The position numbers were made by a program, and so were the translations under genes. A stretch of DNA of 64,000 nucleotides from Desulfobacterales bacterium. GTDB taxonomy: Bacteria > Desulfobacterota > Desulfobacteria > Desulfobacterales > UBA2245. The DNA is taken from NCBI GenBank assembly GCA_040771865.1, contig JAXGZF010000003.1, forward strand, positions 496,001 to 560,000, written 5' to 3'. Shown piece after piece: positions 9,638 to 60,690 of this stretch. Under the pieces are notes generated by a model. That model ran no database searches. It had not been told where the DNA came from and worked only from the letters and a program-made list of their open reading frames with translations. The number at the start of each line of letters is the position of its first letter. Within the stretch, counting starts at the first letter, position 1.

Positions 9638-9700
9638 GGATAATGGACCGGCTTTTTGTTTGCGGCGCCGCTGAAGATACGATTCAACGGGCGGCGTTCA

Positions 9701-9843
9701 CAGGCTCTTGAAAAACCGCGTTCGAGGCCGCCATTCCGCATTGCGCGGCTCTCGCCAATGCTCACATATGCTTGAATATGCCGCGCTTGTCGTATAGCCG
9801 CCCGCCTTGCCTGACGGCCTGATGCTTGTTTTTCAACACCCTG
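9701..9843 (-). mobile_element. MITE-like repeat, copy 2 (143 bp)
   Basis: Reverse-complement copy; flanks TTCA / TTAA; begins immediately after the trpS stop codon. Confidence 0.88.
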
Positions 9844-10830
9844 TTAAAGTTTGACGGCGGCCCGCACCTCCTCCATCGTTTGGCGGGCAACGGCGCGGGC
9901 TCTTTCGTTGCCTGCCATCATGATCTCGTCGACGAGCCGGGGCCGGTCCCGATAAAAGGCCTGCTTTTCACGAATGGGTTCGAGGGCTCGAATCAGATTT
10001 TCGGCCATGATTTTCTTGCACCCCACGCAACCGATTTCTGCGGCCCGGCATTGCCGGCTGATTCCGGCCACCGTATCCTTATCCGTATAGATCTTGTGAA
10101 ATTCAAACACATTGCATACATCCGGATCTCCGGGATCGGTTTTCCGCATCCGCTGAGGATCGGTGATCATCTGGGCGGCCTTGGCGGCGATCTCTTTCGG
10201 AGAATCGGACAGATAAATGGCGTTGTTGTAGCTTTTGCTCATTTTGCGGCGGTCCAGACCCAGTATTTTGGGCGTTTCGGTCAAAAGGGCCCGGGGTTCG
10301 GGAAATACCTCGCCATAGAGGAAGTTGAAACGCCGGGCGATTTCCCGGGTGATCTCGATATGGGGAACCTGGTCCATGCCGACCGGAACTCCGTAAGCTT
10401 TGTACATGATGATGTCGGCCGCCTGCAGCACCGGATATCCGAGAAATCCGAAGGTGGACAGATCCTTGTTGCTCAGCTGCACAATCTGGTCCTTGTAGGT
10501 GGGATTGCGTTCCAGCCAGGGAACCGGCGTGATCATGGAAAGCAGGAGGAAGAGTTCCGCATGCTCCTTGACCTGGGATTGAACGAAGAGCACGCTTTTT
10601 TCCGGGGAAAGCCCGCTGCTGAGCCAGTCGATCATCATGCCGCGAATGTGTCCGGAAATCGGTGCCGTATTTTCATAATCGCTGGTGATGGCATGCCAGT
10701 CGGCGATAAAAAAGAAGCATTCGTACTCATCCTGGAGCTGGACCCAGTTGGCCAGGGCGCCCAGGTAATTGCCCAGATGCAGAGGCCCGGTCGGCCGCAT
10801 TCCGCTTAAAATCCGTTTTCTGGTCGTCAT
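9844..10830 (-). CDS. trpS: Tryptophan--tRNA ligase
   Basis: SGMRPTGPLHLGN, YPVLQAADI, VPVGMDQ, KMSKS. Confidence 0.98.
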   Translation of the reverse strand: MTTRKRILSGMRPTGPLHLGNYLGALANWVQLQDEYECFFFIADWHAITSDYENTAPISGHIRGMMIDWLSSGLSPEKSVLFVQSQVKEHAELFLLLSMITPVPWLERNPTYKDQIVQLSNKDLSTFGFLGYPVLQAADIIMYKAYGVPVGMDQVPHIEITREIARRFNFLYGEVFPEPRALLTETPKILGLDRRKMSKSYNNAIYLSDSPKEIAAKAAQMITDPQRMRKTDPGDPDVCNVFEFHKIYTDKDTVAGISRQCRAAEIGCVGCKKIMAENLIRALEPIREKQAFYRDRPRLVDEIMMAGNERARAVARQTMEEVRAAVKL

Positions 10831-49031: not shown

Positions 49032-49670
49032 ATGGGAATACAAGAACGCAAAGAAAGAGAACGCGAACGCAGACGACAGCAGATCATTGTGGCCGCCAAA
49101 AGGGTGTTTTCCGACAAGGGATTCAACAAGGCCACCATGGAAGACATCGCCCAGGAGGCTGAGCTGAGTCCGGGGACCCTCTATCTTTATTTCAAGAACA
49201 AAGAGGAACTTTATGCTTCCCTTTCCCTGAGAATTCTCCAGTACCTGCTGATCAGCCTGGACCATGTCGCCACCCAGGAAGACCAGTCACCCGAAGCCAA
49301 ACTGGATGCCATGATCCGTGCCATGTATGATGTGTATGAGTTTGATCCGCTGATCATTATCAACATGTTTCACCTTCAGTCCAGCGAGACGCTTAAAAAC
49401 CTGTCCTCTGAATTTTTGTCTGAAATCGAAATCCTGTCCAAAAAAGCCATCAGCGCCATGGCAGCGATTTTTCAGGAGGGTACCGAGAAGGGGGTTTTTA
49501 TCGACAAGCATCCGGTGGCTCTCGCCGACGTATTCTGGTCCATTTTTTCCGGAATTGTGCTTTGGGAAGCCAGTAAAAAAACGTTTAATCCTGAAAAAGA
49601 TTTTCTGAAAATCACCCTTGAAGCCGCCTTCGATATCTTTAAACGGGGATTGATAATAAATCGCAACTAA
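49032..49670 (+). CDS. TetR/AcrR family transcriptional regulator
   Basis: KGFNKATMEDIAQEAELSPGTLYLYFKNKEEL. Confidence 0.95.
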   Translation: MGIQERKERERERRRQQIIVAAKRVFSDKGFNKATMEDIAQEAELSPGTLYLYFKNKEELYASLSLRILQYLLISLDHVATQEDQSPEAKLDAMIRAMYDVYEFDPLIIINMFHLQSSETLKNLSSEFLSEIEILSKKAISAMAAIFQEGTEKGVFIDKHPVALADVFWSIFSGIVLWEASKKTFNPEKDFLKITLEAAFDIFKRGLIINRN

Positions 49671-49815
49671 CAGGGTGTTGAAAAACAAGAATCAGGCCGT
49701 CAGGCAAGGCGCGCGGCGATGCGACAAGCGCAGCATATTCAAGCATATGTGTGAGCATTGGCGAGGGCCGCGCAACACTGAATGGCGGCCTGAGGCGCAG
49801 TTTTGGAACAGCCTG
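49671..49815 (+). mobile_element. MITE-like repeat, copy 3 (145 bp)
   Basis: CAGGGTGTTGAAAAAC...GGAACAGCCTG; flanks CTAA / CTGA; left flank contains the tetR stop codon. Confidence 0.9.
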
Positions 49816-49944
49816 CTGAAGCGGCCGGTTTTTTTCTGACAGCGCAGCGTACGTTCTGTTTGCGGAGATCCGAAAGAGAAGGCCGCTGTTTTGAGATCGT
49901 TGCCGGTCACGTATCACTTGTAGCCGCATTTTCTGAATCGGAAT

Positions 49945-50865
49945 CTATCCTGACCGGGGGTCATAAACGGCGACACGGTTTCTGCCCTGACTTTTGGCTT
50001 GATAAAGCGCTTTGTCCGCTAGTTCGATCATGGTTTTTGAATCGGAGATCTCCGCACATGGCAAACTGGAGATGCCCAGGCTGATGGTGACCGACAGGAT
50101 TATTCCTTCTGACTCAAAACAGTACTGCTCGACGGTTTCACGCAAGCGCTCGGCAACAATCCGGGCGTCCGCGATCACGGTGTGATACAGCAGTATGGTA
50201 AACTCTTCGCCGCCGTAGCGGGAGGCCAGATCGCTTTCCCGTTTGAAGCTTTGAATGATTCTGCCAAGGGTTCTAAGCACCATATCTCCGGTCTGATGCC
50301 CGTAAGTATCGTTGAATTTCTTGAAATGATCGATATCAAGCATTATCAGCGAGAGCGATTCGTTGTATCGAAGCGCCCTCTGCACATCATTGGATATGCT
50401 TTCCTGGAAATACAGATGGTTATATAAGCCGGTCAGTCCGTCCCGATTGGCCATTTCCAGAAGCTGACGGTTCTTTTCCTGAAGGCGTTCGCAAAGTTCC
50501 TTGATCCGCAAATGAATGTTGACCCGGGCAACCAGTTCACCCTCATCAAACGGTTTGGTTACATAGTCCGAAGCACCCATTTCCAATCCTTTGACCTTGT
50601 CGGTGGATTCGGATTTTGAAGTTACCATAATCACGGCGATATCCTTGGTGTCCGGGTTCTGCTTGAGTTGCCGGCAAACCTCGTATCCATCAACGCCCGG
50701 AAGAATCAGATCCAGCAGTATCAGATCCGGATATTCCCGGAGTGCTGTTTCCAGTCCTTTTTCACCGGTATCCGCAGACAATACGAAATGACCGATTTTT
50801 TCCAGAATTGAACGGGCTACATGAATGATCAGCTTGCTGTCATCAATCACCAGAATTTTTGCCAT
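49945..50865 (-). CDS. REC-GGDEF diguanylate cyclase (WspR-like architecture)
   Basis: REC (VIDDS, LLDLILP), DGLTGLYN, DIDHFKKFNDTYGH, I-site RESD, active site GGEEF. Confidence 0.95.
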   Translation of the reverse strand: MAKILVIDDSKLIIHVARSILEKIGHFVLSADTGEKGLETALREYPDLILLDLILPGVDGYEVCRQLKQNPDTKDIAVIMVTSKSESTDKVKGLEMGASDYVTKPFDEGELVARVNIHLRIKELCERLQEKNRQLLEMANRDGLTGLYNHLYFQESISNDVQRALRYNESLSLIMLDIDHFKKFNDTYGHQTGDMVLRTLGRIIQSFKRESDLASRYGGEEFTILLYHTVIADARIVAERLRETVEQYCFESEGIILSVTISLGISSLPCAEISDSKTMIELADKALYQAKSQGRNRVAVYDPRSG

Positions 50866-50879
50866 TGTCAGACCTACCG

Positions 50880-51935
50880 TCAGTGTTGCTCACGCTGTTG
50901 CTTAAAGTGTTCAATAATCAGGCCCGGAATATGCTCGGGAGATTCCACAATATCGACCGCTCCGCGTTTAATGGCTTCCTGCGGCATTCCAAAAACAATT
51001 GAAGAATTCGGGTCCTGTGCCGCGGTCAAAGCGCCTGCTGAATGCATGGCCATCAGGCCGTCGGCGCCGTCATCACCCATTCCGGTCAGCAGTATTCCCA
51101 CAGCATTCCGACCGACATTTTTGGCCATTGAATGAAACAGGACATCCGCCGACGGCCGCTGAAAGTGAACCGGTTCGCTGGTATCAAGCCGAAGGGAAAA
51201 ACTCGATCCCTGTTCACGGATCACGCGAACGTGTTTTCCGCCCGGTGCAATATAGACCGTATCCGGCTTGATGGGTTCCATGTCCCGCGCTTCCTGAACC
51301 TTGAACATGGGGAACATCCTGTCGAGACGTTCCGCGAAGGATTCGGTATATCCGGCGGCCATGTGCTGAACGACCACGATTCCCTGGGTCCGGAAATCCA
51401 TGGCGCCGAGCAATTTTTCAATCGCCTGAACCCCTCCGGTGGAAGCGCCTACAGCCAGAATTTTTCGCAGATAATGCTGGTTCGCGGATATTTTTGCCAA
51501 ACTTGGCCTGGGGGGTTGAAAAAAAGGACGAATGCGGGCGATGGCAGCCGCATGGACCTTGAAAACAATTTCATGCCGTATGGCCTCGAATTGGGTCTCA
51601 AGATTTTCCATCGGTTTGGCCACGAAGTCCACAGCGCCCTCTTCTAGAGCCTCCATGGTTTTGCGGCTGCTGGACCGGGTATAGGAACTGATCATGATCA
51701 CCGGTATCGGACGGTAACTCATCAGATATTTTAGAAAGGCAATGCCGTCCATTCGGGGCATTTCCACATCCAGTGTGATGACATCCGGAACCTCTTTTAA
51801 AATGAATTTCTTGGCCTCAAACGGGTCGGAAGCAGTTCCCACCACCTCGATATCGGATTCAGCGGAAAGAATCCGATGCAGGACAGACTGAACCAGAGGG
51901 GAATCATCAACAATGAGTACGCGAATCTTTGCCAT
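50880..51935 (-). CDS. cheB: Chemotaxis methylesterase (REC-CheB)
   Basis: TLDVEMP, GASTGG, VQHM, RPSADVLF, LTGMGDDG. Confidence 0.96.
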   Translation of the reverse strand: MAKIRVLIVDDSPLVQSVLHRILSAESDIEVVGTASDPFEAKKFILKEVPDVITLDVEMPRMDGIAFLKYLMSYRPIPVIMISSYTRSSSRKTMEALEEGAVDFVAKPMENLETQFEAIRHEIVFKVHAAAIARIRPFFQPPRPSLAKISANQHYLRKILAVGASTGGVQAIEKLLGAMDFRTQGIVVVQHMAAGYTESFAERLDRMFPMFKVQEARDMEPIKPDTVYIAPGGKHVRVIREQGSSFSLRLDTSEPVHFQRPSADVLFHSMAKNVGRNAVGILLTGMGDDGADGLMAMHSAGALTAAQDPNSSIVFGMPQEAIKRGAVDIVESPEHIPGLIIEHFKQQREQH

Positions 51936-51938
51936 ATT

Positions 51939-52523
51939 CTAAAAAAATATTGCCGAGGGCGCGGTCAGACGGTTCCGAAATATCATGGATTTATATTTGT
52001 TTTCCTCGTCAATAATTTCTTTTTCTTGTTCAATATCGAAACGCTTCACAAGCGCCTTGGCCGTAGCGGTAAAGAAAAGCAGTTTCCGGCCGCAGTTTCC
52101 ACCCAGATCCTTGCTGAGCACGGGGATGCCCTCGAGTTCGAGATATTTCTGGGCAAACCGGATGTTTGACCCCGTCACATCACCGTCCTGAGTGCGAAAC
52201 TGCAAAACATTTCCGCCTCCGAAAATTTTGGCGGCCAGGTTTTCCCTGCGAGCTCCGGCCTTGATCAGCTCTCCGATCAGAAGCTCCATGGCGAACATGC
52301 CGTATCGCCCGATATCTGTGGTCAGAATCTCATCGGGCAACAACGTTCCGGGAAGCATAAAATGGTTCATGCCGCCGATGCGTTTTTCAGTATCATAAAT
52401 ACAGGTTGCGATACATGAGCCCAGAATGGTGTACAGGATCTCCCCATGCCTGGAAACCACGTATTCTCCGGCCCGAAGCATAATCACATCATGCTGAAAC
52501 TTTTTACTGTAGAATTTGTTCAT
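51939..52523 (-). CDS. cheD: Chemoreceptor glutamine deamidase
   Basis: TILGSCIA, GGMNHFMLP, RYGMFAMELLI, KIFGGG, DLGG. Confidence 0.95.
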   Translation of the reverse strand: MNKFYSKKFQHDVIMLRAGEYVVSRHGEILYTILGSCIATCIYDTEKRIGGMNHFMLPGTLLPDEILTTDIGRYGMFAMELLIGELIKAGARRENLAAKIFGGGNVLQFRTQDGDVTGSNIRFAQKYLELEGIPVLSKDLGGNCGRKLLFFTATAKALVKRFDIEQEKEIIDEENKYKSMIFRNRLTAPSAIFF

Positions 52524-52642
52524 GCCGATACTCGTTCAATTTTTTACCGAGCCTGAATCGCTTTCGAAAGAGAGCTTTCAGAGTCGATCCTTTCTGATTT
52601 CCGGCCGAAATTTCCCCTGATTCAGGGGCGTTTTGAATCCGG

Positions 52643-53095
52643 CTATGCCACCGCATCGGCAATGCCCAGTTCTTCAATGCTCAGCAGACGATCAATATCC
52701 AGCAACATGATCAGCTCATCGCCTTTTTTCCCGACTCCTTTCAAATATTCGTGATGTATGCCCGGGGGAAGGTTGCTGGTATTCCGAAACTCCTCGGGCG
52801 TGATTTCCACCACATCGGAAATCTCGTCCACGATCACGCCCATGATTCTGCCGGCGATTTCCATGACGATAATCACATGAAAACGCGTGTATTCACGATT
52901 CGGCAGATCAAATTTATCGCCAAGGTCAAAGACGGGAAGAATCGTTCCCCGCAGATTGATCACCCCCTTGACGAACCGGGTGAAATGGGGCAGCGGAGTG
53001 ATATTGTGGTAACTCAGAACCTCCCGGATTTTGGAAATTTCTATTCCATACCGCTGTTCATGAAGTAAAAAGACAATGTACTGCAGACCCGTCAT
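52643..53095 (-). CDS. cheW: Chemotaxis coupling protein
   Basis: GVINLRGTILPVFDL, GVIVDEISDV. Confidence 0.95.
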   Translation of the reverse strand: MTGLQYIVFLLHEQRYGIEISKIREVLSYHNITPLPHFTRFVKGVINLRGTILPVFDLGDKFDLPNREYTRFHVIIVMEIAGRIMGVIVDEISDVVEITPEEFRNTSNLPPGIHHEYLKGVGKKGDELIMLLDIDRLLSIEELGIADAVA

Positions 53096-55416
53096 CAGTA
53101 TTCCTCAAACCCTTCATCCATGTCTTTGGCCAAAAGATCGCTCTGTATTTCTCTGATCGGCGGCTTGCGGATCAGGTCCTTAGCAAGCGGGCGGTTAACC
53201 GGCGCCGAAACCCGCCGCTCTTTCTGATTCATAAAGGTAGTTTTCGGTCCCTCGTGTTTTAACGGGCTTATAACGGTCCGATCCTTGTCGCCCAGGACAA
53301 AAATATCCGTGATGTTTTTGAGCTGTTGGGCCTTTTCCCGAAGATGCTGGGTTTCTTCGGCAATTTCGTCCACAAAGTTGGCATTCTTTTCATTAACCTC
53401 GCACAGTTCCCTGGCTGTTCCCTGGCTGATCTGTTCAATTCCCATCGCGCTTTCCTCGGTTCCCATGGTAACTTCGCCTAAAGCGTTCGAAACACCTTCC
53501 GAGGTTCTAACGATTTTTTCAAAATTCGCCTGCAACTGTTCCACCCACCGAGTACTTTTGGTGACCTTGTCGAGTATTTCCCGAACCAGAACCTGTATGT
53601 CTTTGGCCGCTGCGGAACTTCGCTTGGAAAGGTTGCGCACCTCATTGGCCACAACGGCAAATCCCTTTCCCTGCTCTCCGGCGCGTGCCGCCTCAACGGC
53701 GGCGTTTATGGACAACAGGTTCGTCTGAAAAGTGATTTCGTTGATCAATTCCATCATCTCGACGATCTTATGGCTCGCCTCGGACATCTCCGCCATGGCG
53801 CGGACGGTTTTTTCAACCTCTTTGCCTCCATCCTGAGCCGCCTGAACCGCCTCCTTGGCCATGGAATCGGCATGACGGGTGTTGCTGAGATTCTGAGATG
53901 TGTTGGACACCAGTTGCTCAAGAGTGGAGCTGATCTCCTCCATGGCAGCGGCCTGCTGCTGGGTGCGCTGCGCCAGACTCTGATTTCCCTGGGATATCTG
54001 GACAATCCCTCGGATGACCGGCAGAATGTGCTCCTTGGTCTGAGTGATCAGGTCCACGATGCCGTCCAAGGTCTGATTCAACCGCTGAGTGAGAAGATCC
54101 ATGGCATCGTTTTTCCCGTCGAGCGTGCCTCTTGGCGTGAAATCACCCTGGGCAATTTTTCCGAAAAGTTCGGAAAGCTCGTTGACCTTCGATTCCAGAG
54201 CTTTTTTGGCGCTTTCTTCATTATAATATGATTCTTGAAGTTTTTTCTCGGCCGTTACCTCGGCGGTTAAATCCCTTAAAAATGAAAAGCCTCCCAGAAT
54301 ATTTCCACGGGAGTCTCTTAGCAGCGATGAACTGCACAGAAGGGGGATTTCTGTTCCCTGACGGTTGATCAGGGCGCAGCGTTTGCCCGCAACGGCATCG
54401 TCGGGTCCGATGGCCTGTTTAAGCGCTTCGATCAGTTGCGCGCAGGTCTCGTGAGAAAATACCTCGTAACATTTTCGTCCCATGGCCTCGCGTTGCGACA
54501 TGCCTGCCAGGCGGATTGCCGCCGCATCATTGATGTACGTGATGTTCAGATCCGGATCCACCATGTAAAACGGTTCGGAAATCCCGAGCCTCAAGCTGTT
54601 GGCATACTCCATGCGATCCCGAATGTTGATTACCATCTGATGGAAATTTCTGCTTAACCGTCCGATGGAGTCGACATAATCATCATGGATTTCAACATCG
54701 ATATTTCCGGCAGCCACCTGAGAGGCCTTTTGCTCGAGCAGGCGAAGCCTCTCGGTCACGAGTTTTGAAAAAATCCAGTTGATCAGCAGCACCAGGCAGA
54801 GCAGGGATACAGAGAAATAGAAGATATATTTATTCCGTGTCTGGGCAACGGCTGCAAGAACCTCCTGTGCCGGGTGATTGATGACCATGGCTCCCAGAAT
54901 TCTGCGCGAGGATCCATGACAGTGATGGCAGGCCCGATTGTTGAAAATTGGTTTCATGGTGGATATGAAAGGCTGGCCGTCAATCTGACCCGCAAAGGAC
55001 CTGTCGGGCGCAACTCCGGTTGCCAGCAACCTGTCAAGGGCCTTTCGCATGTCCTCGCCCGACACCAGAGCATCCATGCTGGTCCGGATCTTTTCGGATT
55101 CCGTGGCATAGGCGATCTCCTTGCTGAAATCTGTAATGTAAACCCTTACGCCGCCAATGTTCTCTTTGATATCGTTAAGCTGATCCTTTATGATGCCGCT
55201 TTGTCCGACCACCATGGAAGATCTTACGGTGCTGTAAGCGTTATCCAGAAGATGGTTGGAAAACAAGGCCAACTGACCGATGGCGGACTGCTGCTGAAGG
55301 CGCAGGCTTTGATGAAGAAAAATCACCATAAATAAGACCAGCACAATGATGGTGGCCATCAAAATCTTGGTCCGCATTCGGGTCCGTTTTATAAGCCTGC
55401 TTGTTAAAAATTGCAT
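53095..55416 (-). CDS. Methyl-accepting chemotaxis protein: periplasmic CxxCH sensor, HAMP, PAS, HAMP, signalling domain
   Basis: Two TM helices flanking a domain with CHHCH; PAS (ITYINDAA); FQTNLLSINAAVEAARAGEQGKGFAVVANEVRNL; C-terminal GFEEY; GGAGG RBS before ATG 55416. Confidence 0.93.
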   Translation of the reverse strand: MQFLTSRLIKRTRMRTKILMATIIVLVLFMVIFLHQSLRLQQQSAIGQLALFSNHLLDNAYSTVRSSMVVGQSGIIKDQLNDIKENIGGVRVYITDFSKEIAYATESEKIRTSMDALVSGEDMRKALDRLLATGVAPDRSFAGQIDGQPFISTMKPIFNNRACHHCHGSSRRILGAMVINHPAQEVLAAVAQTRNKYIFYFSVSLLCLVLLINWIFSKLVTERLRLLEQKASQVAAGNIDVEIHDDYVDSIGRLSRNFHQMVINIRDRMEYANSLRLGISEPFYMVDPDLNITYINDAAAIRLAGMSQREAMGRKCYEVFSHETCAQLIEALKQAIGPDDAVAGKRCALINRQGTEIPLLCSSSLLRDSRGNILGGFSFLRDLTAEVTAEKKLQESYYNEESAKKALESKVNELSELFGKIAQGDFTPRGTLDGKNDAMDLLTQRLNQTLDGIVDLITQTKEHILPVIRGIVQISQGNQSLAQRTQQQAAAMEEISSTLEQLVSNTSQNLSNTRHADSMAKEAVQAAQDGGKEVEKTVRAMAEMSEASHKIVEMMELINEITFQTNLLSINAAVEAARAGEQGKGFAVVANEVRNLSKRSSAAAKDIQVLVREILDKVTKSTRWVEQLQANFEKIVRTSEGVSNALGEVTMGTEESAMGIEQISQGTARELCEVNEKNANFVDEIAEETQHLREKAQQLKNITDIFVLGDKDRTVISPLKHEGPKTTFMNQKERRVSAPVNRPLAKDLIRKPPIREIQSDLLAKDMDEGFEEY

Positions 55417-55432
55417 GAATTCCCCCTCCGGC

Positions 55433-55918
55433 TCAATGGCACCCTGCATGAATTATGGGCTTGTATCGGAATGACTGAACCCTTTCCTCGATATGGCATC
55501 GCTGGCATATATCGATCGTTACTTTGCGAACGATAAACCGAGGGTCCTGTGACTCTGCATGATTCTTGCCCGGACCGTGGCAGACCTCGCATCCGGCGTC
55601 TTTCAATTCGGGTGTTTTTTCCAGACTGACAAATCCTCCGGGTTCCCCGTAGCCGGTCGTATGACAGATGTAACACTCCTGAACTTCGGCAGATGTCAGT
55701 CCCTTGATACGCTTGAGAATGCTGTCATAGGAATGGCTTTTACGGGCATATGCCGTAAATGTCGCATATTGTTCTTCGTGACAGGACTGACATACGGCGG
55801 ATCCCACATATTTGCCGGCGGTTTGATCTTGAGCCCAGACCCTCCAGGAACCCGCCAGTAAATATACTGCAAGCAGCGCCATGACGGCAGGATATTTCCC
55901 CCATTTTTGAACATTCAT
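55433..55918 (-). CDS. Periplasmic tetraheme cytochrome c (c554-like family)
   Basis: Signal peptide; YVGSAV-CQSCH, CYICHTTGYG, CEVCHGPG, CQRCH. Confidence 0.92.
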   Translation of the reverse strand: MNVQKWGKYPAVMALLAVYLLAGSWRVWAQDQTAGKYVGSAVCQSCHEEQYATFTAYARKSHSYDSILKRIKGLTSAEVQECYICHTTGYGEPGGFVSLEKTPELKDAGCEVCHGPGKNHAESQDPRFIVRKVTIDICQRCHIEERVQSFRYKPIIHAGCH

Positions 55919-58062
55919 TGGTTTCTCCGCATCGAAGCATTTTTGAAAAATATTTCCTCAATTCCCAGAAGATCCAAGACAAGCGCTACAGATCCGTCTC
56001 CCATGATGGTGGCTCCGGCGATGCCCTGAATGCTTTGAAAGTTTTTTTCTATGCTTTTTACCACCACATGGCAGGGCGCCAGAACCTGATCCACGAGAAG
56101 TCCGAATTTTTGCCGCCCGGTATTGATCAAGACCATGACAGGCGGCTGGGAACGATCAGGTTCAGCACCATAGAACAACATCCCAAGGTCTGCCGATGGA
56201 AGATAATCTTCTCTGAATCGATACAGTTTTTCAGTGGCGCCGAAGATTCTCATTTTTTCCGCATCAAAATTTTCTGTTGCAACCACTCCCCAGAGCGGCA
56301 CCAGATACGATTCGGTGCGATTGCTCACGTGCAACGCATGCATCAGCGCATAAGAAAGCGGAAATGAAAGGGTAAATGCCGTTCCCTGTCCTTCAGTACT
56401 TTCAACCGATATACTTCCGCCCACCCGCTCCACCTGGGTTCTGACAACATCCATGCCCACGCCGCGGCCGGATAGATCGGTAATATTTTTTGCAGTTGAA
56501 AATCCCGGCTGACAGATGCATCGAATCAGGGCCTCATTGTTCAGAGGCTCGCCCTCTTTTAAGAGTCCCATGGACAATGCCTGCCGGGAAATTTTTTCTC
56601 GATTCAGACCGCGGCCGTCGTCGCTGATCTGAATATAGATCCTGCTCCCTTTCTGATAAGCTGAAAAGCTGATAAGCCCTTCCGAAGGCTTGCCGCAAGC
56701 CTTCCTCTCTTCGGGGGGTTCAATGCCGTGGTCCACGCAGTTTCTGACGAGATGTTTTAATGGATCTGCTATAAATTCGATAATTTCTTTATCCAGCTCA
56801 GTGTCAACACCGGCCAGTGCCACCTTGACCTGCTTGTTCTGAGCCAAGGCGGTATCTCTGATCAGGCGCTGGTACCTATGGAAGGTTCCTTCAAGGGAAA
56901 ACATACGTGCATTGGTAACGCGCTCCTGAAATTCATGATTGATCTTAAGCAGCGTGTCCATCTCGTGTTCAATCTCGCTGGCGAAGTAATCGCGGCGTTT
57001 GGAAAGAATGTTCTGCATTTTGGACAGGCCTACGGCGATTTCCTCGGCCAGATCCACCAGACGGTCGATCTTCTGGACATCCACACGAACGCTGGTTTTT
57101 CGATACATTTCCCGGCTCCGCTGCTGCCGGGAGACCACCTGATCCAGGATTGCCTTGTCGAGCTTGCCCTCGTCTACCAGAATCTCGCCTAATTTTTTTT
57201 GTTTTTCCAGAGCATGCTGAACATCTTTTCGGCTTACCCCCGCCTTTTCCACCAGTACCTCGCCCAGGGGAGATTCAGCTCCTTGGACATCGATTCCATT
57301 CCGGTATCGGTTTGAAATGTCCGTGATGACAATGTCGTTGTCTTCACGGACAAACATGAATACATCCTCTATATATTCCAATGGAGCGGAGGTTTTTAAA
57401 ACAAGGCGCCATCCGATATAGAGCTGATCTGGAACCAGATCTTCGTACCGGGGCATTCTTGATAAATCCGGCGTGATTTCAAGGGCTTCGCCCAGATCGG
57501 CAAGATTGCGCAAAATGATTAGCGGGTCATTTCCGACCTCAAACATATTTTTTTGAAATTTTAAAATAATTTCGTAATAACGTTCAGTTTTCCCGAGTCC
57601 GACCTGTTCGGCCGTCGCCGTTCCTGCTTCACAACCCAATCCTGACGGGGGGGAAATTCGGAGTCTTGACTTCGGCGGAACTTCTTCGGCCGCAAAACGG
57701 CATATCTTGGCTTTAAACGCCTTTACCTCCTCTGGATCCGCCTCAGCTTGTCCGGACATACGGCGATCCAGCATGGCACGAATAAAATCAATATTTTCAA
57801 GGAGAGAAGATATAAGGGGTTTTGTGACTGGAAGTGTTCCGTTTCGCACATTTTCAAGCAGATTTTCCAGCAGATGCGCGCACTGGCTCATGACCGAAAA
57901 CCCAACCATGGCCGAGCCGCTTTTCAATGTATGAAGCGCTCTGAAAAGCTCCTCCGCGTCCGGACCTGGTTCAGGATTATGCTCTAAGCGAAGCAAACTT
58001 TCTTCGGCAGACTTGAGAAGATCGTCGGTTTCAGCAAAAAATATTTCCAGCGTTTCATCCAT
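55915..58062 (-). CDS. cheA: Chemotaxis histidine kinase
   Basis: Hpt LFRALHTLKSGS, DPLKHLVRNCVDHGIE, DDGRGL, SGRGVGMDVV, C-terminal CheW domain. Confidence 0.96.
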   Translation of the reverse strand: MDETLEIFFAETDDLLKSAEESLLRLEHNPEPGPDAEELFRALHTLKSGSAMVGFSVMSQCAHLLENLLENVRNGTLPVTKPLISSLLENIDFIRAMLDRRMSGQAEADPEEVKAFKAKICRFAAEEVPPKSRLRISPPSGLGCEAGTATAEQVGLGKTERYYEIILKFQKNMFEVGNDPLIILRNLADLGEALEITPDLSRMPRYEDLVPDQLYIGWRLVLKTSAPLEYIEDVFMFVREDNDIVITDISNRYRNGIDVQGAESPLGEVLVEKAGVSRKDVQHALEKQKKLGEILVDEGKLDKAILDQVVSRQQRSREMYRKTSVRVDVQKIDRLVDLAEEIAVGLSKMQNILSKRRDYFASEIEHEMDTLLKINHEFQERVTNARMFSLEGTFHRYQRLIRDTALAQNKQVKVALAGVDTELDKEIIEFIADPLKHLVRNCVDHGIEPPEERKACGKPSEGLISFSAYQKGSRIYIQISDDGRGLNREKISRQALSMGLLKEGEPLNNEALIRCICQPGFSTAKNITDLSGRGVGMDVVRTQVERVGGSISVESTEGQGTAFTLSFPLSYALMHALHVSNRTESYLVPLWGVVATENFDAEKMRIFGATEKLYRFREDYLPSADLGMLFYGAEPDRSQPPVMVLINTGRQKFGLLVDQVLAPCHVVVKSIEKNFQSIQGIAGATIMGDGSVALVLDLLGIEEIFFKNASMRRNQ

Positions 58063-58075
58063 GCAGGGTGCCGAT

Positions 58076-58453
58076 TTAACGTTCCCATACCAGTTTTTTG
58101 ATCGCCCACAACAGTTCTTCCGGCTGGAAAGGTTTTAAGAGCCATCCGGAAGCCCCCAGTGCGCGCCCTTTTTCAATCAGCGACTTCTCAGATTCGGTGG
58201 TTAATACCATGATTGGAATATATCGAAATTCGCCTTTCTTTATGTTTTCAATAAAGGTCATTCCATCCATTCGGGGCATATTGACATCCGTGATGATCAG
58301 GGAAGGCGCGATGTCCTGATTTTTCATTTCTTCTAAACGCATCAAGCCGTCTTGACCGTCGACTGCCTCGACGACTTTATATCCTGCATTTTGAATACAG
58401 AAGGAGACTGAAGAGCGGATCGTTGGAGAATCGTCCACCATCAGAATAAGCAT
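58076..58453 (-). CDS. cheY: CheY-like response regulator
   Basis: VDDS, ITDVNMPRMDG, LTTES, GASGWLLKPF. Confidence 0.88.
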   Translation of the reverse strand: MLILMVDDSPTIRSSVSFCIQNAGYKVVEAVDGQDGLMRLEEMKNQDIAPSLIITDVNMPRMDGMTFIENIKKGEFRYIPIMVLTTESEKSLIEKGRALGASGWLLKPFQPEELLWAIKKLVWER

Positions 58454-58547
58454 ATGAAAAATTTCCTCATTTCAATAAGTTTCGTTTGTATTGCTCCGTA
58501 CAGAACCCATCGAAAACAATCGGCATGTCTCATGCTTCTGTACACCA

Positions 58548-58844
58548 TCAGGTTAAAAAAGATTTCAATCCGCTGACTGTCAAAATCGTATCCATTTCAG
58601 AAGACAAATCTTTGACGACCCATTTGATCCCTGAGGTTAATGATCTACGGAAAGCCAGAAGCAATTGCAAAGCCGCCGTATCCGCAAAAGTCAGTTCTTC
58701 CATGCTGATGGTGATTTTCCGACATCGAGCCAGGACACTGTCTAAGAAATGCTTCAGGCATTGAATGTCATGAATGGTCAACTCGCCCTTGAATCGGTAA
58801 ACTCCTTCCGCATCCTGGTTGATCGCAAAACGCCTGCTGTTCAC
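58548..58844 (-). CDS. STAS domain protein
   Basis: GELTIH, FADTAALQLLLA; GTG start with GGAGG; typical first gene of STAS-cheY-cheA clusters. Confidence 0.82.
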   Translation of the reverse strand: MNSRRFAINQDAEGVYRFKGELTIHDIQCLKHFLDSVLARCRKITISMEELTFADTAALQLLLAFRRSLTSGIKWVVKDLSSEMDTILTVSGLKSFLT

Positions 58845-58880
58845 CCCCCACCTCCCTGGAATGCAATTTCGTTCCTTTAG

Positions 58881-59023
58881 CAGGCTGTTGCAAGACTGCG
58901 CCTGAGGCCGCCATTCAGTGTTGCGCGGCTTCCGCCAATGCCCACATATGCTTGAATATGCTGCGCTTGTCGTGTCGCCGCGCGTTTTGCCTGACGGCCT
59001 GATTCTTGTTTTCCAACGCCCTG
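58881..59023 (-). mobile_element. MITE-like repeat, copy 4 (143 bp)
   Basis: Reverse-complement copy with perfect TTAG / TTAG direct repeats (58877-58880, 59024-59027). Confidence 0.9.
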
Positions 59024-59043
59024 TTAGCGGAAAGCGCTATGAA

Positions 59044-60690
59044 TCAGGCATCCGGAAAAAGTTCGTGCGACCGTTCCCGCAGTTTATATTTCTGAACCTT
59101 CCCGCTGGCCGTCATCGGAAAAGATTTGATAAAGGAGACATATTTCGGAACCTTGTAACGGCTGATTTTGCCTCTGCAAAAATCCCGAATATCTTCTTCC
59201 GTAAAATCATATCCCGCTTTTTTAATGACAAAGGCACCCACCTCCTCGCCGAATTTTTTGCTGGGAACTCCCACTACCTGCACATCGGCGACGCCATCCA
59301 TCTGATAGATGAATTCTTCGATCTCCCTGGGAGAAATGTTTTCCCCTCCACGGATGATCATATCCTTGGAACGGCCGGTGATGGCGATGTAACTGTTTTC
59401 ATCCATCACTCCCAGGTCGCCGGAATGCAGCCAGCCATCCTCGTCAATGGCCTTTGCCGTGGCTTCGGGCATATTGTAATAGCCTTTCATCACGTTGTAA
59501 CCCCGGCAGCAGATTTCGCCCTGTTTTCCTGGCCCTACCTGATCTCCGGTTTCCGGATCCACAAGTTTGACCTCGATGCAGGGCATGGGCCGTCCCACGG
59601 TTCTGACACGAAGTTCCAGAGAATCGGTAGTTTTGCTCTGAGTAATTCCCGGAGAAGCCTCGGTCAAGCCGTAGACGATGGTTATCTCTTTTGCATGCAT
59701 TTTTTCTGCCACCGCCTTCATGATTTCAATGGGGCAGGGAGATCCGGCCATAATACCGGTGCGAAGGGATCTGAAATCAAACTTGCTGAAAAGCTTATGT
59801 TCCAACACCGCAATAAACATGGTCGGCACCCCGTACAGGGCCGTACATCTTTCCTGTTCGACGGCGGCCATCACCTGAACCGGATCAAAGCGCTCCAGAA
59901 TCACCATGCAGCTGCCGTGGCTCACTGCGGCGGTGGTTCCCAGCACGCACCCGAAACAGTGAAAGAGGGGAACCGGAATGCAGACCCGATCCTTTTCTGT
60001 AAATTTCTGATTTTCGCCGATCCAGAACCCGTTGTTTCCGACATTGTAATGGGAGAGCATAACGCCCTTAGGGAAACCCGTGGTGCCCGAAGTATACTGC
60101 ATATTGACCACGTCGTGACAATCCAGCTCAGCCTGACGGGCCTTGTATTGCTCGTCGGTGGTCATGGCGGCCAGGGCCAGGATTTCCGGTATGGAATACA
60201 TGCCGCGGTGCTTTTCCTGCCCCAGGAACATGACCCGTTTCAGATGGGGGAATTTTTCGGTTTTCAGGAATCCTCTTGGCTGAGTTTTTAATTCCGGAAC
60301 CAGTTCGTAGAGCGTCTGAACATAATCGGTATCCTGGTAGCCGTCGATGATAAAGATGTTTTCGGTCTCCGATTGCCGCATCAAGTATTCCAGCTCGACG
60401 CTTTTATAGTTGATGTTTACGGTCAGGAGAATCGCTCCCATTTTTGCGGTTGCAAACTGAAGCGCCACCCAGTAAGGGATATTGGTCGCCCAGATCGCAA
60501 CCTTTTCTCCTTTTTGTATTCCCATGGCCATCATGCCCTTGGCCAGCTGGTCTACAACGTTTCCAAACTCCCGGTATGTCAGGCGAAAGTCCCGGTCCAC
60601 ATAAACCACCGCATCGCTGTCCGGATATTTTGAAATGGTCTCATCAAGCATCTGTCCCATCGTTATGGAACGCAATTCATCTGTCTGCAT
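59044..60690 (-). CDS. AMP-forming acyl-CoA synthetase
   Basis: [57 protein letters not shown] before ATG 60690. Confidence 0.94.

Follow-up and report, generated by a model that had tools for sequence, protein, structure and literature searches.

A small tetraheme cytochrome gene paired with a putative heme-c sensor gene in a chemosensory operon that closes with a diguanylate cyclase in a Desulfobacterales bacterium

We analysed a 64,000-nucleotide stretch of DNA from a Desulfobacterales bacterium (G000:C3:496001-560000, hereafter the window, from a genome of 2.98 Mb in 13 contigs), and studied a chemosensory operon on its minus strand. The operon encodes a small tetraheme cytochrome c, a methyl-accepting chemotaxis protein (MCP) with a putative periplasmic heme-c sensor domain and, as its last product, a response-regulator diguanylate cyclase expected to make cyclic di-GMP (c-di-GMP). 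By comparing genomes, we found that this cytochrome subfamily is encoded directly upstream of predicted heme-c sensors almost without exception, whatever the output of the sensor. The pairing of cytochrome and sensor is far more general than the operon itself and is the main new point of this study. We found no description of it in a literature search that left the supplementary tables of PMC12889525 and PMC5013675 outside its scope. No partner cytochrome is mentioned in the available portions of PMC8396549, PMC2577667 and PMC12889525.

A genome collection was scanned with an alignment of the cytochrome, which gave 392 relatives, and the best 80 were kept. Among the 45 close loci (L017-L061, cytochrome at least 41% identical), 39 carried a same-strand sensor gene directly downstream of the cytochrome. 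The downstream partners are homologous sensors with a single CxxCH motif about 155-185 residues from the start. The remaining six close loci comprise three that end less than 500 bp past the cytochrome, one with a sensor MCP upstream and two with no sensor. For the 35 more distant loci among the best 80 of the 392, a sensor partner was found in three only. These 42 partners are 32 MCPs, nine hybrid histidine kinases and one sensor-HAMP protein.

A separate check was made by searching both profiles against 151 genomes sampled evenly from the phylum and comparing the coordinates manually. Matches to the sensor profile were found in 77 of these genomes and matches to the cytochrome profile in 84. 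Each of the 30 cytochrome matches with a score of at least 128 bits had a sensor match immediately downstream on the same strand. Conversely, 41 sensor matches scored at least 90 bits, and 30 of them had an adjacent cytochrome (9 had none, 2 were indeterminate). By record titles, the taxa carrying the module are Thermodesulfobacteriota, Nitrospirota and one Acidobacteriota metagenome-assembled genome (MAG), and pairs of the cytochrome and a CxxCH-bearing MCP also occur at the Desulfovibrionaceae loci L058, L059 and L061. The module was also found inside other che clusters (L031, L033, L051, L107, L109, L111).

Two side observations were made on these loci. At L018, L019, L021, L022, L023, L028, L030 and L097, at least two genes with receiver domains come after the hybrid kinase, and a weak CheA-like match also follows it at L019, L022 and L097. 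Another eight loci (L063, L064, L067, L069, L071, L076, L077, L079) encode c554-like cytochromes of 32-36% identity, and 11-65 bp after the cytochrome there is an open reading frame (ORF) of 207-238 residues without CxxCH, which appears to form a different conserved pair.

The operon cytochrome (55433..55918, minus strand, 161 residues) is a small, predicted periplasmic member of the c554 family. It matched Pfam Cytochrome_C554 (PF13435) with 67.5 bits against a cut-off of 20.8, and it matched cytochrome c554 in the PDB (1BVB) with E values of 4.6e-9 for the single sequence and 1.5e-13 for the family profile. A preliminary description of this DNA, made from the sequence alone, had proposed four CxxCH motifs and a signal peptide. 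We located all four motifs, at residues 43, 82, 110 and 138. A putative signal peptide was recognisable by eye only, as K5/K8, a hydrophobic stretch and then VWA followed by QD, and a hydropathy scan with a 19-residue window did not flag it. Across the cytochrome family, the only conserved histidines outside the motifs are H120 (41/41) and H161 (38/41), and no methionine is conserved in the 41 sequences. With only two such histidines, no more than two of the four hemes could be bis-histidine through conserved residues, and for the remaining hemes the sixth position may be open or unusual. The genome has a single copy of this subfamily, and cytochrome c maturation genes are present.

The receptor (53095..55416, minus strand, 773 residues; Pfam HAMP, PAS and MCPsignal) consists of a transmembrane helix (TM), the periplasmic sensor, a second TM, HAMP, PAS, a second HAMP, a signalling domain of the length of that of Tsr, and a flexible tail. 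Counted from the ATG at 55416, its hydrophobic segments are residues 16-34 and 198-216. The CxxCH motif previously described for the periplasmic part of the receptor was found between these segments, as CHHCH at residues 163-167 (54916-54930, minus strand). Both cysteines and the histidine of CxxCH are invariant in 41/41 aligned sensors.

We assigned the sensor domain (54826..55314, minus strand) to the Cache/PAS-like heme-c type of the Geobacter proteins GSU0582 and GSU0935 by profile, structure model and Foldseek. As a lone sequence, it gave only marginal PDB matches (3B47, E 0.028; 3B42, E 0.1). A profile of 41 sensors matched 3B42 over the whole domain with E 1.2e-12 and 3B47 with E 2.4e-10, followed by WalK Cache domains. 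The AlphaFold2 model has a mean predicted local distance difference test score of 95.1, and its helix 124-130 bears the motif between strands. Foldseek placed this model closest to 3B42 (about 17% identity in the structural alignment), then to the Cache domains of WalK and CitA. Of the 42 cytochrome-linked sensor homologues, 20 exceed the threshold of PF21563. Taken together, the profile and the model indicate that the receptor sensor is a member of the GSU0582/GSU0935 family. The heme would be covalently bound, as suggested by the motif, its extracytoplasmic position and the cytochrome c assembly genes of the genome.

In the cytoplasmic part of the receptor, the signalling domain and the preceding HAMP aligned with residues 222-522 of E. 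coli Tsr with two single-residue gaps (E 8.5e-50). The best NCBIfam match of the MCP was Vibrio Aer2, at 225.7 bits, which is far under the equivalog cut-off. The cytoplasmic PAS domain had no match among PDB sequences at E <= 0.01, and we therefore make no claim on its cofactor or on a likeness to the PAS of Aer2. The receptor ends in the pentapeptide GFEEY (53098..53112, minus strand), and xFEE[FY] forms the last five residues in 7/7 of the operon MCP orthologues. C-terminal pentapeptides of the NWETF/GWEEF type tether CheR or CheB, and by analogy GFEEY may do the same.

The cytochrome and the receptor are encoded within nine co-oriented ORFs that run from 58844 to 49945 on the minus strand. 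The cluster had been described as STAS-cheY-cheA-cytochrome c-MCP-cheW-cheD-cheB-REC/GGDEF, and the ORF list and Pfam domains bore this out for all nine genes. We also recovered the three junctions described earlier. The sequence itself shows the ATGA shared by cheA and the cytochrome gene (55915-55918), the ORF coordinates leave 14 bp between cheB and the cyclase gene, and the receptor start 16 bp past the cytochrome stop is backed by a ribosome-binding site. The longest receptor ORF opens at 55449, within the cytochrome gene, and the alternative start is the ATG at 55416. Because a strong Shine-Dalgarno sequence, GGAGGGGGA, lies 5 nt upstream of the ATG at 55416, this start is favoured.

The first operon gene (58548..58844, minus strand) encodes a 98-residue STAS protein resembling anti-sigma-factor antagonists (Pfam STAS_2, 44.9 bits; STAS, 42.5 bits). 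Its score against the NCBIfam anti-sigma factor antagonist model was 38.1 bits, under the cut-off of 53.45. The motif F[AI]DTA[AS]LQ is kept in 8/8 orthologues. This motif has a threonine at the position where SpoIIAA-type antagonists presumably carry the phosphorylated serine, and no partner kinase or phosphatase gene lies within the operon. The second gene (58076..58453, minus strand) encodes a CheY-like single-domain response regulator of 125 residues (Pfam Response_reg, 90.3 bits). It is followed by cheA (55915..58062, minus strand), whose product of 715 residues has Hpt, H-kinase_dim, HATPase_c and CheW-like domains in Pfam.

Downstream of the receptor, the operon encodes CheW (52643..53095, 150 residues; Pfam CheW, 125.7 bits), CheD (51939..52523, 194 residues; Pfam CheD, 96.7 bits) and the methylesterase CheB with a receiver domain (50880..51935, 351 residues; Pfam CheB_methylest, 193.8 bits; Response_reg, 85 bits), all on the minus strand. 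CheB exceeded the NCBIfam CheB cut-off of 293 with 376.5 bits. The final gene (49945..50865, minus strand) encodes a REC-GGDEF diguanylate cyclase of 306 residues (Pfam GGDEF, 164.6 bits; Response_reg, 100.2 bits). It has an RxxD I-site, RESD, then five residues and GGEEF. In the orthologues, GGEEF is found in 6/6 and the I-site in 5/6. The receiver of the cyclase keeps the acidic pair, D52, T82 and K104, as read from the sequence.

We next compared the operon with related genomes. The cytochrome was found in 8 of the 41 related genomes searched, and the operon order was mapped by tblastn of the window proteins onto the regions of the relatives. The complete order is present in a genome of the same genus (G001, 86-97% identity), in two genomes that each belong to another family of the order (G023, 44-72%; G006, 43-66%), and in a MAG with the record title Pseudomonadota bacterium (L029, 31-70%). 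A genome from another family of the phylum (G079, 31-58%) kept the order with cheB absent, and L027 and G047 hold partial copies ended by contig edges. The REC-GGDEF gene is last in 6/6 operons that extend that far, including the one without cheB. The outcome that was to refute the preliminary description, a cytochrome or cyclase not kept beside the che genes, was thus not found in these relatives as far as their contigs reach. Because members of other genera and families have this order as well, the arrangement is not due to chance, and the cytochrome, the MCP with its heme motif and the cyclase are conserved parts of one operon.

Some details of these relatives should be mentioned. In G079 (L106, G079:C1:412500-432400) cheR is present and cheB is absent, and cheD directly precedes the REC-GGDEF gene. 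The operon MCP of G023 (L011:9979-12302, G023:C13) has a frameshift near residue 259, leaving an open frame of 294 residues, and this could be an assembly error. Contig G023:C3 holds a second, intact sensor-MCP without a cytochrome.

The window operon has no cheR. In this genome and in G001, only a 119-bp gap separates cheW and cheD (52524..52642 on the minus strand of the window), while all relatives outside the genus encode cheR at this place. G023 and G006 have an ORF of 277-286 residues there (that of G023 matched NCBIfam CheR with E 2.7e-48, below the cut-off), and tblastn gave CheR matches at the same place in L029, L100 and L106. The genus (G000 and G001) has lost cheR from this operon. 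The sole cheR of the genome sits in a second che cluster, beside flagellar genes on contig C7. Despite this loss, the receptor retains Tsr-like methylation-site sequences as well as its C-terminal pentapeptide. Three MCP genes were found in the genome in total.

The CheA of the operon has no receiver domain in Pfam, and it scored 387 bits against the NCBIfam CheA model, under the equivalog cut-off. In pairwise BLAST, which was uninformative on class, the identity was 39% with E. coli CheA and 33% with the second CheA of the genome, encoded on C7; E. coli CheA and this second CheA are 41% identical. We identified a tandem MshEN-like motif, a candidate for c-di-GMP binding, at CheA residues 265-313 (57124..57270, minus strand; NCBIfam NF053729). 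Seven CheA orthologues scored 33.3-50.8 bits for the motif, five of them above the cut-off, and it is also found in the flagellar CheA on C7 (L118:8160-10373, residues 293-346, 44.0 bits). No NF053729 match was found in E. coli CheA. In both CheAs of the genome, it lies between the P2 region and the dimerisation domain. MshEN is described as a tandem 24-residue motif, and CheA is listed, without study, among MshEN-associated proteins (PMC5013675, available portion). Compared with MshEN, the operon CheA has only the 53-position motif, with a one-residue spacer between the halves. Perhaps this motif binds c-di-GMP.

From these data we propose that the operon encodes a dedicated non-flagellar chemosensory pathway that turns the state of a periplasmic heme into c-di-GMP, a reading to which we give about even chances. 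In the proposed mechanism, the cytochrome would dock on or near the sensor domain and exchange electrons with the sensor heme, so that the redox, spin and ligation state of this heme would be coupled to the pool of periplasmic electron carriers. Alternatively, the cytochrome might hold the sensor heme in a ferrous, ligand-competent state. The change at the heme would then pass through TM2, HAMP, PAS and the second HAMP to the Tsr-length (36H-like) domain that controls CheA. Phosphoryl transfer from CheA to the receiver of the cyclase would switch on c-di-GMP synthesis, and CheA would also phosphorylate CheB for adaptation and CheY, which may act as a sink or serve another target, possibly with the STAS protein. 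Feedback by c-di-GMP could occur through the I-site of the cyclase and perhaps through the MshEN-like motif of CheA. Since the flagellar CheA has the same motif, this would give a route from the sensor to motility.

A number of observations weigh against this pathway or its parts. Contact or electron transfer between cytochrome and sensor is conjectural, and phosphotransfer to the cyclase is predicted from gene order only, in an operon that also encodes a CheY. The pairwise distances of cytochromes and neighbouring sensors are correlated (Mantel r 0.60; 0/2000 permutations as high), and in a quick tree the cytochromes group by the output type of the partner (6 changes versus 16.7 in shuffles), and both results reflect shared history, not contact, and are expected from shared descent alone. 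The 9 of 41 strong sensor matches without an adjacent cytochrome indicate that this type of sensor can work alone. The window sensor itself is under the Pfam cut-offs (PF21563, 19.8 versus 27 bits; PF11845, 19.7 versus 24.1 bits), and the candidate distal methionine is present in only 29/41 members of the sensor family. As for CheA, the MshEN match lies at the cut-off (NF053729, 38.2 versus 38 bits), and each half of the motif has one mismatch, at position 11, to the relaxed motif of Wang et al. 2016. With cheR missing from the operon, adaptation may be impaired or borrowed.

Evidence for expression should be read in the same light. In two metatranscriptome libraries, from a study that may have yielded this DNA, contigs of 99-100% identity bridge cheY/cheA, cytochrome/MCP and the gap between cheW and cheD (the last by a contig at 52442-52762), and further contigs lie within cheB and the cyclase gene. 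These contigs have depths of 2-5 and are unstranded, and DNA carry-over is possible, which makes them weak evidence. Parts of the operon without such contigs are uninformative on expression.

The last point of this kind concerns the signal. The only signalling-linked member of the sensor family tested so far binds nitric oxide (NO) tightly and was read as a sensor of NO, not of redox potential or oxygen (PMC12889525, available portion). We regard redox potential as the physiological signal with evenly balanced confidence. A possible though clearly less favoured alternative keeps the same pathway and takes NO or another diatomic ligand, bound by the receptor heme, as the signal. Here, the cytochrome would have an accessory role, either holding the sensor heme in the ferrous form or itself binding or turning over NO at an open heme. 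The tested protein, a TM-HAMP-linked member of the sCache_heme family, released NO slowly, like NosP and H-NOX, and formed no stable O2 complex (PMC12889525, as far as available), and GSU0582 and GSU0935 bind NO and carbon monoxide (PMC8396549, as far as available). The ligands of the cytochrome point in the same direction: outside the motifs, the family conserves only two histidines and no methionine, so that a sixth ligand may be missing from one or two of the four hemes. In addition, the segment after the second CxxCH resembles cytochrome c554, in which we take the corresponding heme to be five-coordinate and to bind NO.

Against an NO signal, the single signalling-linked member tested is from Pseudomonas and is distant from the operon subfamily. 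The Geobacter sensors have redox-linked methionine ligation and distinct midpoint potentials (PMC8396549, available text), and the candidate methionine is present in the window sensor. A dedicated four-heme partner exceeds the need for mere NO binding, and no genes of nitrogen-oxide metabolism lie beside the operon. Thus, the term redox-sensing used in the preliminary description stands as one of two live readings. The redox-linked ligation of the Geobacter domains speaks for it, and the NO-sensor behaviour reported in the 2026 preprint (PMC12889525, in the part available) speaks for the other.

It is improbable that the main output of the operon is the flagellar motor, reached through the operon CheY in redox or energy taxis, with the cyclase as a minor side branch. 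The genome does have flagellar genes, the operon encodes its own CheY, CheW, CheD and CheB, and the heme-c MCP DcrA of Desulfovibrio is described as a sensor of redox potential and oxygen (PMC8396549, partial text). However, the CheY of the flagellum-linked C7 cluster is 62% identical to E. coli CheY and that of the operon 34%. Ancestral F7 systems, whose gene order the operon resembles, reportedly do not act on the motor in those species that have been examined (PMC7184735, partial text), and the cyclase is kept in 6/6 complete operons even where cheB is lost.

Lastly, it is very unlikely that the cytochrome is an ordinary respiratory carrier that shares the transcript and has no role in signalling: cytochromes of the c554 family and other multiheme cytochromes are abundant (profile matches in 84/151 genomes, many in larger proteins), but this subfamily lies beside a heme sensor in 30/30 strong matches and 39/45 close loci, with MCP and kinase partners in several phyla by record titles, and in this genome it is a single-copy gene that overlaps cheA and abuts the MCP gene.

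Returning to the proposed pathway from heme state to c-di-GMP, a more specific form of it can be offered, with distinctly lower confidence. The small c554-like cytochrome and the heme-c Cache domain might form a two-protein, 'wired' periplasmic sensor that feeds an ancestral F7-type array with c-di-GMP output and feedback on CheA. Its input would arrive by electron transfer between the proteins, or else through a ligand captured by the cytochrome at an open heme, and not as a diffusible ligand on the receptor. In turn, c-di-GMP would act back on the operon CheA and the flagellar CheA through their MshEN-like motifs. In other lineages, the input would be delivered to a hybrid histidine kinase.

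The neighbours of the operon are unrelated genes: upstream lies one for an AMP-binding acyl-CoA synthetase, and downstream a divergent one for a TetR protein. An Rfam scan of 49300-59300 gave no match at E <= 0.1, and consensus scans for promoters and terminators gave numbers near the shuffled expectation (18 versus 12.8 and 21 versus 15.2). A sigma-54-like GG-N-GC element upstream of the STAS gene was dropped as its spacing is off by one base.

We also observed a dispersed repeat of about 150 bp, with 87 blastn hits in the 3-Mb genome. One copy lies just downstream of the operon (49668..49825, blastn) and an inverted copy just upstream (58875..59027; blastn C3:555027-554875, 89.7% over 155 bases), so that two inverted copies bracket the che operon. 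Others lie at about 1996-2149 and 9686-9846 of the window. The depth of metagenome contigs over the repeat was 1335.8 (run X2, bin overlapping 49668..49825), compared with about 9 over the operon, a difference of about 100-fold. An ORF of 96 residues on the repeat (49639-49929) had no Pfam match.

The organism was found in anaerobic-digester and wastewater metagenomes, where the attachment and redox behaviour of relatives of sulfate reducers matter in practice. Runs with small shares of the stretch (X4-X20) were left out of this statement on habitat, and among them only X9 and X15 were mapped. The operon suggests a way in which the periplasmic redox or NO state could be turned into a lifestyle decision through the biofilm messenger c-di-GMP. 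If the motif in CheA binds this messenger, the system would also illustrate in compact form how a second messenger can feed back on a chemosensory kinase. Periplasmic heme-c sensors (DcrA, GSU0582/GSU0935, sCache_heme) have been known since the 1990s. Their signal in vivo, whether redox potential, oxygen or NO, and the route by which their heme is reduced or oxidised are still argued. A dedicated cytochrome that is widely and tightly linked to one sensor subfamily is a partner that can be purified, and it makes the question of the in vivo signal directly testable. We therefore regard the cytochrome-sensor module as the element most worth follow-up.

Among known systems, the operon looks like an ancestral F7-type rather than a Wsp-type system, as judged from its gene order, the Tsr-length signalling domain and the Aer2-like best match of the receptor. 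The most ancient F7 order is reported as anti-sigma antagonist, cheY, cheA, cheW, one heme receptor, cheR, cheD and cheB; the Tar-like and Aer2-like receptors of F7 belong to class 36H, and the ancestral function of F7 is stated to be unclear (PMC7184735, available portion). The operon resembles this gene order, and like the ancestral F7 systems (stages 1 and 2, in gammaproteobacteria, such as Vibrio cholerae cluster III and Pseudomonas aeruginosa Che2/Aer2) it has a HAMP-PAS-HAMP layout and occurs beside a separate flagellar che system. The window receptor also has a signalling domain of the 36H type, as assigned from the Tsr alignment and the best match to Aer2 and not from a formal heptad classifier. 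In contrast, the window receptor is a transmembrane protein with a predicted periplasmic heme c, whereas Aer2 of F7 is soluble with a heme-b PAS. The operon has a single cheW, after the receptor, has the cytochrome gene between cheA and the receptor, and closes with REC-GGDEF. An McpA-like receptor, a second STAS and a serine phosphatase at the cluster end are absent from the window operon. With a cyclase as its last gene, the F7-like operon points to a concrete candidate output for ancestral F7 systems.

The Wsp system of Pseudomonas is likewise a che operon that encodes a REC-GGDEF output with an I-site (WspR). In Wsp, the CheA is a hybrid that includes a receiver, CheY, CheD and STAS are absent, and the receptor is one of surface or envelope stress without heme. 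In the window, CheA has no receiver, CheY, CheD and STAS are present, and the input would be a heme sensor with a cytochrome. The Esn network of Geobacter sulfurreducens consists of the MCP EsnA, the CheW EsnB, the CheA EsnC and the cyclase EsnD, and it is needed for electrode colonisation (PMC5585712, partial text). It resembles the operon in tying MCP, CheW and CheA to a diguanylate cyclase response regulator, in its anaerobic, cytochrome-rich 'deltaproteobacterial' lineage and in a redox-related phenotype. It differs in that EsnA has no periplasmic domain, has a cytoplasmic GAF and belongs to class 40H, and in that the esn genes are scattered; neither a heme sensor nor a cytochrome partner is described in the available text (PMC5585712). 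Wsp and Esn are the known chemosensory routes to c-di-GMP, neither with a heme sensor or a cytochrome. The view that no characterised system has the present combination agrees with our literature search, in which none was found.

DcrA has a heme motif of the same CHHCH form as the window receptor. This protein comes from a sulfate reducer, is methyl-accepting and has its c-type heme in the periplasm, and its likeness to the window receptor is by description, not by sequence. DcrA of Desulfovibrio vulgaris is described as sensing redox potential or oxygen, and the available text (PMC8396549) names neither a partner cytochrome nor a cyclase for it.

Cytochrome c554 of Nitrosomonas europaea (1BVB, 1FT5) shares PF13435 with the operon cytochrome, and the first three heme motifs and the segment CH[TV]xG[YF]GxxGG[FY] align. 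The operon cytochrome is about half the size (mature form of about 130 versus 211 residues, aligned to c554 residues 4-112 of 211), and the full c554 architecture is not found in it (NCBIfam Cyt554_Nsmonas, 34.4 bits versus a cut-off of 400). Cytochrome c554 has three distal histidines, and the operon cytochrome family has two that are conserved. The c554 gene lies with genes of hydroxylamine oxidation, while that of the operon cytochrome lies with sensors.

The closest likeness of the receptor is to GSU0582 and GSU0935, whose heme-c sensor domains are 3B47 and 3B42 (PMC8396549, available portion) and which were reclassed as sCache_heme in the 2026 preprint (PMC12889525, available portion). 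They share with it a periplasmic domain between two TM helices, a CxxCH in a short helix, a Cache/PAS-like fold, and HAMP and MCP output. The window MCP differs in its additional cytoplasmic PAS and second HAMP, and in a signalling domain of Tsr length, while the Geobacter sensor family is named in Pfam after class 40H. Finally, the window MCP is encoded together with a dedicated tetraheme cytochrome.

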